From positions 1 to 3,770 of the forward strand of contig SCQK01000022.1 in assembly GCA_004321885.1 (NCBI GenBank): a stretch of 3,770 nt of DNA, given 5' to 3'. Below are positions 1,656-3,770 of the stretch, in pieces (positions within the stretch are counted from its first letter, which is position 1; every line of letters starts with the position of its first letter). Under the pieces are notes generated by a model. The model saw only the letters and a program-made list of their open reading frames with translations. It did no database searches and was not told the origin of the DNA. The DNA is from Patescibacteria group bacterium (GTDB taxonomy: Bacteria > Patescibacteriota > Patescibacteriia > Magasanikbacterales > GWA2-37-8). The translations under genes and the position numbers were made by a program.

Positions 1656-2199
1656 ATAGGGCGCATCGCTGGGTTGCGCGAGGCGATCCGTTGGGTCAAC
1701 AAATTCCGGGGACACCACACGCAATGCGTGACGTTGTGCTGACGCCGCCATAGCGTGGCCGCGTGGCAAGAATCGCACGGATCGTCGCGCCAGGCCAACC
1801 CCATCACGTCACATAGCGGGGCAATCGCCGGTAGGCGACTTGTTTCTGTGAAGAGGACGATGCGACATACCTCCGCATGATGTCTGAGTGGTGCTCCCGC
1901 TGGAACGTGGAGGTGTGGGCGTACTGCTTGATGCCCAATCACGTACATATGATCGCGGTTCCCGTTTCAGGCGAAGGCAACGGTCTCTGAGGGTCACACC
2001 CTTGCTTGAAATGGTCTGGACTTGGCGGGACGTTCTTCTGAGTGACGTATCGGGTGACGAGCGTGACAGGATACGGCGTCATGAGAGGACGGGCAGACCT
2101 GTGGGGAATGACGGGTTTGTTGAAACGCTTGAACAGGCATCGGGTTGTATCCTGCACCGCCAGAAGCCAGGGAGGAAAAAGGGGCTGAACCGGAAATGA
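1656..2199 (+). pseudogene. Decayed IS200-like/RayT-like (COG1943, Y1 HuH tyrosine transposase family) gene. The start codon is mutated to ATA, there are at least 2 frameshifts, and about 85 aa are missing from the middle
   Basis: Frame 2, 1841..1990, reads CFCEEDDATYLRMMSEWCSRWNVEVWAYCLMPNHVHMIAVPVSGEGNGL and then a stop; the H-V-H HuH motif is at 1940-1948. Frame 1, 1981..2199, reads RSLRVTPLLEMVWTWRDVLLSDVSGDERDRIRRHERTGRPVGNDGFVETLEQASGCILHRQKPGRKKGLNRK and then a stop, which matches the conserved C-terminal tail of this family (...RTGRPLG.D.F...LE...GR.L.P.KPGRK...). Frame 0 from the ATA at 1656 reads IGRIAGLREAIRWVNKFRGHHTQ..., resembling the family N-terminus M-x-R-x-A/P-R-x-x-x-P-G-x-P-H-H-V-T-Q-R-G-N. 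The piece RGKNRTD at 1762.. lies in a third frame. The conserved region between the HuH motif and the V-x-P-L-L-E segment is absent. Confidence 0.6.
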
Positions 2200-2367
2200 G
2201 TATGGTGTCCCCCGACTAAAGACCCAGCGTTAGCCATCTACTGTGCAACGAAGTGTGGCGCTTAACAGGTAAGCGTGGCATACTGAACTTAAAGATTGCT
2301 CCGGTCTAGGCGTTAGGCTCAATGAATCAGCATTGACGGAATGTTGTCAGGAAGGAGAGACTAGACC

Positions 2368-2568
2368 ATGTCAAAGGTAGACGAACTCAAAACGGAAATC
2401 GAGCAACTTCCCCGGGAGGAGTTCTCGAAACTCATCCGCTGGCTGTCAGAAAAGGAATGGGAGAGGTGGGACAAGGAGATCGAAGCCGATTCTGAAACGG
2501 GAAAGCTGGATTTTCTGGTGCGTGAGGCGATTGACGCGAAAGCTAAGGGAAGTCTTAAGGACCTGTGA
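2368..2568 (+). CDS. Type II toxin-antitoxin antitoxin: a 66-aa acidic, helical protein
   Basis: AGGAAGGAGAG Shine-Dalgarno 8 nt upstream of the ATG at 2368. The protein is MSKVDELKTEIEQLPREEFSKLIRWLSEKEWERWDKEIEADSETGKLDFLVREAIDAKAKGSLKDL. The pattern L-P-x-E-E-x-x-x-L-x-x-W-L followed by W-x-R-W-D-x-x-I-E-x-D-x-x-x-G-K-L-D-x-L-x-x-E-A is typical of small addiction-module antitoxins. Its stop overlaps the start of the downstream toxin ORF (CTGTGA). Confidence 0.7.
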   Translation: MSKVDELKTEIEQLPREEFSKLIRWLSEKEWERWDKEIEADSETGKLDFLVREAIDAKAKGSLKDL

Positions 2569-2828
2569 GGCATCGTACGACAGCTCGGTTTTGGGCTCAC
2601 CTTGCTTGCCTTCCAGAAGGTGTCCAGAGAGTGGCCCGACGAAACTTCGCGCTCCTGAAAGAAAATCCTGCACATCCTTCGCTACACTTCAAAAAGGTTG
2701 GCAGGCTGTGGTCCGCGAGAGTTGGGCCTCATCATCGGGCGCTGGCGGTTGAGGACGGCGCGGATTTCATCTGGGTTTGGATCGGTGCTCACGATGAGTA
2801 CGAGCGAATCATCGAGCAGCAAGGCTAA
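2565..2828 (+). CDS. Type II toxin-antitoxin toxin of the RelE/ParE superfamily (ParE-like, HigB/YafQ-like mRNA interferase fold); 87 aa with a GTG start
   Basis: The GTG at 2565 overlaps the antitoxin stop by 4 nt (GTGA), and an AAGGA sits 4-5 nt upstream. The protein MRHRTTARFWAHLACLPEGVQRVARRNFALLKENPAHPSLHFKKVGRLWSARVGPHHRALAVEDGADFIWVWIGAHDEYERIIEQQG carries the conserved N-P-x-H-P-S-L ... W-S-x-R-I/V ... R-A-L ... W-x-W-I-G-x-H-x-x-Y-D/E-x-I/L signature seen in ParE-like and YafQ-like toxins. Its small size and its position downstream of the antitoxin also fit. Confidence 0.68.
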   Translation: MRHRTTARFWAHLACLPEGVQRVARRNFALLKENPAHPSLHFKKVGRLWSARVGPHHRALAVEDGADFIWVWIGAHDEYERIIEQQG

Positions 2829-2992
2829 CTCCTAGCTCCAGGTCAATCGCTAATCGCGACGGCTGAGCGATGCGTCAGGCTGTCACCTCTGTCCAACAAA
2901 CCAGAATTAAACGGGCGTTCCACCCCTTCCATTATACAAGCTCGCCTCCATGACTTCGATAGTCTCTTGCTCCCTCCTGAAATCCCCCCTCG

Positions 2993-3012
2993 CCCCCCTT
3001 TTGAAAGGGGGG
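2993..3012. repeat. Strong GC hairpin CCCCCCTTT-TG-AAAGGGGGG (a C6 stem, with an extra C6 run just upstream and a G7 run), not followed by a U-tract on either strand
   Basis: Read directly: 2984-2989 is C6, 2993-2998 is C6, 3007-3013 is G7. The stem has 6 GC pairs plus 2-3 AT pairs. Homopolymeric G7/C6 runs are also prone to slippage. Confidence 0.4.
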
Positions 3013-3398
3013 GAACTGAGATTGCCGCGCACCCGTCTGGTGCTACTCAGAAACTGGCTAAGTGGTCAGTTTCACAATTACGGTCACGTATCCGTTCGTG
3101 GTGAGCTTGTCGAACCATGAACGTGGAGGCCACCCTTCGACTGGCTCAGGGTGAACGGATTCGTGGCATAGCTATGAAATGCTATACTACGTTTCTCCCG
3201 TCTGCGGGTCAGCCTCGCCGGATGGATTACTCGCAACGACAGACAAACGAGCGGGTTGCGCGATCAATCTCTTCTCGGGTGCTGCCAAGCGATGCGGTCG
3301 CAGAACCCATCAGAAGGCGAGTGATGTTGCAAGCATTCAGGAGCCGAAGATGGGCTATGGAAGCGGATTTTTCTGGTGTGCTCTTCAGGAGAAAAGAC

Positions 3399-3427
3399 TT
3401 GACAGTCTTGGAATCGTTAGTAATATA
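3399..3427 (+). promoter_or_regulatory. Near-consensus sigma70 promoter: TTGACA (3399-3404), a 16-nt spacer, then TAATAT (3421-3426). The -35 element is embedded in the inverted repeat AAGACT-TGAC-AGTCTT (3394-3409)
   Basis: Read directly from the sequence. The -35 is a perfect consensus and the -10 matches 4 of 6 positions with a 16-nt spacer (TATAAA is also possible at a 19-nt spacer). The predicted transcription start at about 3433 leaves a leader of about 80 nt before the ATG at 3515. Confidence 0.5.
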
Positions 3428-3450
3428 AAAGTGAGATTGTATGGCGCGTT

Positions 3451-3495
3451 GCCCTTGGGTTACGTAGCGCGACGATGAGCGGAGGGGCCAAGGGC
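3451..3495 (+). promoter_or_regulatory. Leader stem-loop: GCCCTTGG (3451-3458) pairs with CCAAGGGC (3488-3495) around a 29-nt loop, and it ends 2 nt before the AAGGAGG Shine-Dalgarno
   Basis: Read directly: an 8-bp perfect inverted repeat inside the 5' UTR of the 3515 gene. It may be an attenuator or regulatory structure. Confidence 0.3.
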
Positions 3496-3514
3496 GCAAG
3501 GAGGTCAGGCGACA

Positions 3515-3770
3515 ATGAATGACCCCGAAAAGGGCTCGGCGAGGTTAAGTTCTCTCAGAAAGACCATGCGGAAGCTCTCTGAGCAGCTTCCAGGGAGCGA
3601 CGCGACGTATCACCGTAAGCTTTCTCAATACGAGGATGAGATCGAGGTCCTCCAGGCGCAAGTGAAGACGCTCGAAGAGGAGATCTATCACCTGACGCGG
3701 CGACTGGACCAGACCCCGAAAGAGTTTGAGTTTCTCCGGTCCAAGCTCGACCAATCCCGCGAACAGTTGG
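3515..3770 (+). CDS. Partial (N-terminal 85 aa) hypothetical coiled-coil protein; the gene continues past the right edge
   Basis: AAGGAGG Shine-Dalgarno at 3498-3504, 10 nt before the ATG at 3515. The frame is open to the window end: MNDPEKGSARLSSLRKTMRKLSEQLPGSDATYHRKLSQYEDEIEVLQAQVKTLEEEIYHLTRRLDQTPKEFEFLRSKLDQSREQL, with heptad-like spacing of E, K, Q and L. It was missed by the ORF track because there is no stop in the window. The minus-strand ORF 3545..3754 is its Leu-rich antisense shadow. Confidence 0.65.
   Translation, partial: MNDPEKGSARLSSLRKTMRKLSEQLPGSDATYHRKLSQYEDEIEVLQAQVKTLEEEIYHLTRRLDQTPKEFEFLRSKLDQSREQL

Follow-up and report, generated by a model that had tools for sequence, protein, structure and literature searches.

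A probable type II toxin-antitoxin module pairing a RelE/ParE-superfamily toxin with an antitoxin absent from the family libraries searched

Two short overlapping genes in a contig of 3,770 nucleotides (GenBank SCQK01000022.1, assembly GCA_004321885.1; the whole contig, at its full length, is referred to here as the window) form what is very probably a type II toxin-antitoxin module. The upstream gene encodes a small acidic protein, the presumed antitoxin, and the downstream gene encodes a basic protein with the predicted fold of the RelE/ParE superfamily, the presumed toxin. The toxin-antitoxin reading follows from the conservation of this overlapping pair, the opposite charges of its products and the asymmetric decay of its two genes. 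An earlier note on this DNA, made from the sequence alone, had proposed an antitoxin-first type II toxin-antitoxin operon, and the conserved layout and unfailing adjacency of the two genes among relatives bear the proposal out. To judge from sequence comparison, the module is most likely a self-contained, chromosomally scattered cassette spanning positions 2255–2828. The full reading, in which the type II module acts through a toxin that is a ribosome-dependent ribonuclease (RNase), is probable, if with appreciably less assurance than toxin-antitoxin status itself.

The pairing of the two genes is far beyond chance. When a single genome was scanned for each species, 212 loci were confirmed, and 80 of them were kept for locus comparisons. 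These span more than 12 phyla, with representatives in the Methylomirabilota, Nitrospirota, Acidobacteriota, several classes of Proteobacteria, Chloroflexota, Planctomycetota and Verrucomicrobiota, as well as in the Cyanobacteria, Bacteroidota, Clostridia, Armatimonadota, Omnitrophota and others. According to profile hidden Markov models of both families, an antitoxin homologue adjoins the toxin gene in all 80 loci, standing immediately upstream and co-oriented in 78 and in convergent orientation in two. The best toxin match is that very neighbor in 77 of the 78 loci, the neighbor in the remaining one (L073) being an N-terminal toxin fragment. Locus L073 (2416–2721 and 4085–4237) carries an insertion of about 1.36 kb that splits the toxin gene, so that the antitoxin stays together with the initial 36 codons of the toxin while toxin residues 35–85 lie beyond the insert. 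Both convergent loci (L058, 4001–4471; L062, 1113–1564) come from metagenome-assembled genomes (MAGs) of Alphaproteobacteria and place the antitoxin 3' of the toxin, facing it from the other strand; in L062, the toxin start is preceded at a distance of 11 nucleotides by the end of an unrelated open reading frame (ORF) of 206 amino acids, which may have replaced the antitoxin as partner. Gene junctions could be scored in 69 loci, and 68 of them are −4 (39 loci), 0 (24 loci) or −1 (five loci), with a single junction of +17. No cluster of flanking ORFs occurs in more than six of the 80 loci, and the two genes hence make up the whole conserved unit; on the same evidence, a third gene such as a PaaR2-like regulator was rejected. 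An association with phages or plasmids is likewise essentially rejected, given that no phage record matches the module and only four of 72,556 plasmid records do, all of them cyanobacterial.

Beyond these loci, a database clustered at 90% identity contains 687 close relatives of the toxin, and a profile search raises this number to at least 7,932. For the antitoxin, 446 close relatives were recovered, and the count at 50% identity is at least 1133 clusters (E ≤ 1e-3). Pairwise identities among toxins and among antitoxins are correlated over 67 intact pairs (r 0.81; Mantel 0/999). Measured against twelve close relatives, the ratio of nonsynonymous to synonymous substitution rates (dN/dS) lies between 0.07 and 0.24 for both genes (0.07–0.19 for the antitoxin gene) at dS 0.5–1.3, and is 0.16–0.24 in the comparison with the 93%-identical copy of locus L001, values that show both genes to be subject to purifying selection. 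Decay is unevenly distributed between the two partners. Of the 80 loci, 11 have a damaged toxin gene; a clear truncation of the antitoxin occurs in L076 alone, a locus with toxin damage as well, and two further loci have variant antitoxin C-termini. More frequent decay of the toxin gene would be expected of a toxin that does harm whenever its partner is missing.

The arrangement seen in the window (Table 1) conforms to this picture. Both ORFs and the GTGA sequence that joins them lie where the earlier note had placed them, and the start/stop overlap suggests translational coupling of the toxin to the antitoxin. The antitoxin is indeed the small, acidic and helical protein of 66 residues that had been described, with a computed isoelectric point (pI) of 4.76, a net charge of −5.5 and four predicted helices, and the toxin has a pI of 10.0 and a net charge of +4.1. 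The Shine-Dalgarno sequence reported for the antitoxin gene was also found, and its position is taken by GGGAGG or GGAGG in relatives. Two sequence motifs, W31-x-R-W34-D35-x-x-I-E-x-D41-x-x-x-G45-K-L47-D48 in the antitoxin and W70-x-W72-I73-G74-x-H76-x-E78-Y79 in the toxin, are present and make up the most conserved columns of their respective families.

The toxin matches the Pfam family PF24732 (ParE-like toxin domain) with 26.0 bits (E 9e-6), against a curated gathering threshold of 24.4 bits, over residues 20–81 and profile positions 3–67 of 67. All 44 of a diverse set of toxin relatives match the same family above or near its threshold (best E 1.3e-9), and many database relatives carry it as a precomputed domain. 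Other matches among the 44 relatives are weak, with four hitting Gp49 (best E 4.4e-4) and two hitting PF05016, the ParE_toxin family (E 0.057), which the window protein itself does not match in a Pfam search. No match to the toxin was found in NCBIfam, PADLOC or PHROGs, NCBIfam having no model for the PF24732 family, and no RelE, YoeB, YafQ or HigB membership emerged from Pfam or NCBIfam. At the level of sequence, the toxin is not a demonstrable member of the ParE, RelE, YoeB, YafQ or HigB families. A profile search of both proteins had been called for by the earlier note, and it places the toxin in PF24732 and the antitoxin in no family. An AlphaFold model of the toxin, obtained from 128 sequences (predicted local distance difference test, pLDDT, 88.5; predicted template modeling score, pTM, 0.74), consists of a β-strand, helices 7–14 and 18–33, strands 43–45, 48–52, 57–64 and 67–75, and a final helix 76–86. 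The two N-terminal helices pack on a three- to four-stranded antiparallel sheet, as in the RelE/ParE fold. The predicted model and the Pfam match agree with the earlier identification of a RelE/ParE-fold toxin, and would assign the protein to the superfamily by fold and to PF24732 by score.

Fold ranking, profile alignment and residue conservation indicate that the toxin is most likely a ribosome-dependent mRNA endonuclease and not a ParE-type gyrase poison. The nearest structural neighbors of the model are RNase members of the superfamily, ParE ranking below all RNase-type toxins, at an identity to every solved superfamily member of only 7–24%. Profile alignments against E. coli and RP4 proteins, with sequences taken from annotated records, point in the same direction. 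The toxin family profile aligns with E. coli YoeB (hhalign, E 4.6e-4), superimposing W49-S50 on W56-S57, R52 on R59 and R58 on the catalytic R65, and with E. coli HigB (E 0.078), pairing HPSL with FPSL and H76-D-E-Y79 with T-H-K-E-Y; the correspondences of R58 with YoeB R65 and of H76..Y79 with HigB H-K-E-Y stem from weak alignments. The profile does not align to RelE, YafQ or RP4 ParE (E 0.18–0.29). Ten residues are invariant in the toxin family (L16, S39, L40, R52, R58, W72, I73, G74, H76, and Y79) and six more are at least 90% conserved (H37, K43, K44, W49, S50, and E78), and the toxin of the window carries every one of them. On the sheet face and at its C-terminus, RelE employs a Lys/Arg/Tyr set, and YoeB and YafQ likewise employ Arg/His/Tyr together with Glu or Asp. 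ParE toxins are not known to possess a set of this kind. The resemblance of the conserved Arg/His/Tyr set to that of an RNase is hence the reason for reading the toxin as a probable ribosome-dependent mRNA endonuclease despite its Pfam name. The earlier statement that the catalytic residues are intact holds insofar as the family-conserved Lys/Arg/His/Tyr set is complete, but a catalytic role is not readable by eye. Similarly, the C-terminal W-x-W-I-G-x-H-x-E-Y motif, once taken as characteristic of the RelE/ParE/YafQ fold, does mark this family and is echoed in the T-H-K-E-Y of E. coli HigB, but it is not a hallmark of that fold in general.

The most serious competitor to this reading accepts the toxin-antitoxin module and makes its toxin a ParE-type poison of DNA gyrase, as the Pfam name suggests. 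The low rank of ParE among the structural neighbors and the RNase-like character of the conserved Arg/His/Tyr set make it unlikely. These features set the toxin apart from ParD-ParE (RK2/RP4) and PaaA2-ParE2, and profile comparison reveals no similarity to RP4 ParE (E 0.29) or ParD (E 0.7).

The antitoxin of the window matches no family in Pfam, NCBIfam, PADLOC or PHROGs, and these searches were also empty for 49 relatives (38–71% identity) and nine distant locus partners. Alignment with hhalign against E. coli YefM, HigA, RelB and DinJ and against RP4 ParD gave probabilities below 1%. A DNA-binding domain of the ribbon-helix-helix (RHH), helix-turn-helix (HTH), Phd/YefM or AbrB type was not found in the antitoxin or 59 relatives with Pfam, NCBIfam, PADLOC or hhalign, nor did the library searches and hhalign yield a RelB signal, in keeping with the earlier view that the antitoxin is neither of the ParD/RHH nor of the HigA/HTH type. 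A DNA-binding domain is common but not obligatory in antitoxins, and its absence is therefore compatible with a toxin-antitoxin system. Over its first 28 residues, the antitoxin profile produces a borderline match to the N-terminal dimerization hairpin of ribosomal protein L7/L12 (E 0.009), which is a hint of a helical-hairpin dimerization motif, not of homology. Modeled alone with AlphaFold, the antitoxin forms helices 3–12, 16–25, 28–41 and 47–59 with low confidence (pLDDT 62.6), as commonly happens with antitoxins that take up their fold on the toxin. Its conserved residues (I11, L14, W25, W34, D35, D41, G45, L47, D48, L50, A54, and L63) are hydrophobic, aromatic or acidic, not basic, a pattern that fits a toxin-binding peptide able to cover a basic active site and shows no sign of a DNA-reading surface. 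In terms of its overall organization the module would be of an ordinary kind with an uncharacterized partner, the antitoxin being absent from the libraries searched. A bolder proposal can be offered only tentatively, and is somewhat more doubtful than not: that the 66-residue protein represents a large undescribed antitoxin family, with the cluster numbers and phylum range given above, which lacks a DNA-binding domain and is dedicated to an uncharacterized family of RelE/YoeB-like RNases mislabeled as "ParE-like."

Comparison with known systems places the module beside, but not within, several of them. In its presumed mode of action it resembles YefM-YoeB or RelBE, and its closest structural analogue is archaeal RelB-RelE (Pyrococcus horikoshii 1WMI; Methanocaldococcus jannaschii 3BPQ). 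Toxin identity to the archaeal proteins is 11–18%, neither chain of archaeal RelB-RelE gives a sequence-level match, and a likeness of the antitoxins is not demonstrated. With respect to YefM-YoeB and other YoeB-type mRNases, toxin identity is 11–16%, there is no Pfam YoeB match, the toxin ends in a 10-residue helix after H76, whereas YoeB ends at H83-Y84, and the antitoxin is unlike YefM (hhalign probability 0.4%). The HigB-HigA system of E. coli K-12 (YgjN/YgjM) differs in its reversed gene order, with the toxin first, and in its antitoxin, HigA being a protein of 138 residues unrelated to the 66-residue antitoxin. PF24732 is a database entry only, for which the literature searched contained no citing paper; source databases name its members and the antitoxin relatives alike "hypothetical," one toxin relative from the Joint Genome Institute (JGI) being labeled RelE, and literature searches with the sequence motifs of the families returned nothing relevant. 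The Microcystis 1065/1067 RelE/ParE-like module (PMC7935541) could not be shown to belong to the same family.

Several observations weigh against the reading of the locus as a toxin-antitoxin operon with an RNase toxin. Single-sequence and profile searches of PDB sequences recovered no toxin, just as those made with the antitoxin recovered no antitoxin. The alignment to YoeB is weak, its E-value being a pairwise one with a probability of 33%, and it ends before the C-terminus; the Glu46 loop of YoeB is absent from the toxin. The low confidence of the antitoxin model makes the mode of binding conjectural. A consensus scan of positions 2150–3100 detected no sigma-70 promoter, and no intrinsic terminator was found 3' of the toxin gene, the sole terminator-like site in the scan of that interval lying on the minus strand. 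Lastly, the literature searched yielded no paper on members of PF24732 or of the antitoxin family.

Three further explanations were weighed. The genes might form a conserved two-gene module of another nature, for instance a non-toxic RelE-fold regulator that binds the ribosome or RNA, together with an acidic partner. Toxicity is at present a reading of the sequence, the antitoxin matches no antitoxin family and PADLOC gives no match, and the module is nearly absent from plasmids and absent from phages, all of which could accommodate such a module. This explanation is nevertheless improbable in view of the textbook layout, with a small acidic protein upstream, a basic RelE-fold protein downstream and overlapping stop and start codons, of the unrelated neighborhoods in more than 12 phyla, which imply mobility as a unit, and of the more frequent decay of the toxin gene and the invariance of its catalytic-type residues. 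Slightly less probable still is that the toxin is a DNA-nicking endonuclease like Vp1843, itself of the RelE/ParE superfamily, or has some activity not yet described. The superfamily harbors at least three activities (PMC7935541) and the identity of the toxin to its solved members is low, but no specific similarity to a nicking enzyme is seen, and it is ribosome-dependent RNases that match best in both structure and profile. Least likely of all, a copy reduced to an inactive relic beside decayed mobile DNA would suit the adjoining degraded IS200-like transposase gene, the toxin damage seen in 11 of the 80 loci and the GTG start, but both ORFs are full length, the toxin being free of frameshifts as had been noted earlier, every invariant and near-invariant residue is kept, a GTG start with a −4 overlap is normal in the closest relatives, and the low dN/dS against L001 speaks for continued selection.

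If the locus is a toxin-antitoxin module with an RNase toxin, its operation can be outlined from its layout. A single transcript would start just 3' of the extended −10 element TGgCATACT (2276–2284), the antitoxin would be translated efficiently from its AAGGAG and ATG, and translation of the toxin, coupled through GTGA, would probably remain below that of the antitoxin. The antitoxin, probably partly disordered alone, would bind the toxin and cover its active face, a step proposed by analogy with RelB, archaeal RelB, YefM and PaaA2. Upon loss of the antitoxin, the toxin would cut mRNA on the ribosome in the manner of RelE, YoeB and HigB, using Lys43/Lys44, Arg52, Arg58, His76, Glu78 and Tyr79. 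Provided that the antitoxin family truly has no DNA-binding domain, control would be exerted by means other than classical antitoxin-operator binding. One possibility is that a host factor binds an inverted repeat in the promoter spacer; another is that the N-terminal helical hairpin (L7/L12-like) acts as a new DNA-binding or dimerization unit. The 6-bp inverted repeat of the spacer and the TAGGC repeat may be regarded as candidate operators only.

Table 1. Coordinates of the module and its putative signals in the window.
Feature	Position	Strand	Remarks
Antitoxin gene	2368..2568	+	ATG start, 66 aa; ORF call
Toxin gene	2565..2828	+	GTG start, 87 aa, basic, predicted RelE/ParE-superfamily fold, Pfam PF24732
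GTGA overlap	2565..2568	+	toxin GTG 2565-2567 on antitoxin TGA 2566-2568
Shine-Dalgarno AAGGAG of antitoxin gene	2352..2357	+	read from sequence, 10 nt 5' of ATG
Putative promoter block	2255..2284	+	conserved upstream of nearest relatives
Direct repeat TAGGC-GT-TAGGC, candidate operator	2307..2318	+	repeat search; earlier coordinates corrected

The regulatory region offers features at the candidate level. Nucleotide homology with the closest relatives runs from about 2227–2253 to just past the toxin stop codon and includes a conserved block, GTrGCGCTTAnCAtGtnAGCGTGGCATACTGA, corresponding to window positions 2255–2287, in which each of 13 sequences compared keeps CATAxT. The block can be divided into a weak −35-like GTGGCG (2255–2260), an extended −10 TG (2276–2277) and a −10 hexamer CATACT (2279–2284); the −35 column reads TTGACC in L002. 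In each of 11 related loci the element TGGCATACT occurs exactly once, 7–95 nucleotides ahead of the start codon of the antitoxin gene, and it fits an extended −10 (TG-n-CATACT). In locus L008 (3789–3797), TGGCATACT stands just 7 nucleotides before the antitoxin ATG, compared to 70–95 nucleotides in most of the others; should it be a −10 element there, the mRNA would be leaderless.

Within the promoter spacer lies a 6-bp inverted repeat, CGCTTA-N5-TAAGCG (2259–2275), for which 79.5% of cells are paired in relatives and which in L010 shows a double change to CGCTGA/TCAGCG. The pairing percentage was reached by 10 of 500 shuffles and the covariation score by 170 of 500, and this weak covariation does not support the repeat as a proven operator. 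The direct repeat, 3' of the putative −10, had also been proposed as an operator in the earlier note, which located TAGGC-N2-TAGGC at 2303–2316. The repeat exists, but those coordinates were off, and it is only semi-conserved, appearing as CAGGC-GC-CAGGC or CTGGC-GC-CAGGC in about nine of 13 close relatives. A structured 5' leader was rejected, the RNAalifold consensus being −3.57 kcal/mol and Rfam returning nothing at E ≤ 1. Sequence 3' of the toxin gene shows no folding advantage over its shuffled versions (z −0.10). Farther downstream, about 170 nucleotides past the toxin stop codon, there is a strong hairpin, CCCCCCUU-UUGA-AAGGGGGG, at about 2996–3015 on the plus strand, which has no U tract and whose surroundings likewise do not fold better than when shuffled.

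The module is preceded by a decayed IS200-like tyrosine transposase gene (1700–2200) with two stops and a frameshift, the stitched translation of which matches PF01797 (Y1_Tnp) with 27.6 bits against a cut-off of 23. The transposase fossil described in the earlier note is hence real, but the suggested role of the module as a stabilizer of mobile DNA finds no general counterpart, as the link is shared only with L001 and no neighbor recurs in the 80 loci. The association of the module with mobile DNA is a local trait here, not a general one. Positions 1700–2906 are 93% identical in nucleotide sequence to L001 3145–4342, which belongs to a Candidatus Methylomirabilis MAG (JACPQW010000183), and positions 3233–3708 match the Methylomirabilis contig again at 80%. 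Given these matches and a GC content of 54.6%, the NCBI label "Patescibacteria group bacterium" of this 3.77-kb contig looks like a binning error. Just downstream of the module in L001 (4447–4788, minus strand) is a gene for a HigA-like protein with an HTH domain of the XRE type, as judged by eye, which suggests a cluster of toxin-antitoxin genes in that locus.

Elsewhere in the window, positions 366–1595 on the plus strand would encode a signal-peptide protein of about 409 amino acids, interrupted after codon 52 by an in-frame TAG (522–524); the part downstream of the TAG has no Pfam match, and the interruption could reflect a pseudogene, a sequencing error or read-through. An ORF on the minus strand (1–57) runs off the left end of the contig, starts with MKGIPQGRYTKEFRAEAVK and by eye looks like the beginning of an IS3-family OrfA transposase, in which case an insertion sequence would form that end of the contig. 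At 3401–3428 on the plus strand, a near-consensus sigma-70 promoter (TTGACA-16 nt-TAATAT) is apparent by eye ahead of a coiled-coil ORF, which extends from 3515 off the right end and has weak, sub-threshold Pfam matches, mostly to coiled-coil families.

New antitoxin partners for RelE/ParE toxins appear regularly, and the general understanding of toxin-antitoxin systems is left unchanged by the module described here. If confirmed, it would nonetheless add a new antitoxin family to the catalogues used by toxin-antitoxin and defense-system finders, and would correct a database label from "ParE-like" in the direction of a RelE/YoeB-like RNase. Toxin clusters of this family are found in the Nitrospirota, Acidobacteriota, Methylomirabilota, Planctomycetota, Chloroflexota, Cyanobacteria and other groups, where all are annotated as "hypothetical" and none has been studied. 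Confirmation would open to experiment a very abundant toxin-antitoxin family, whose toxins fall into at least 7,932 clusters at 90% identity.

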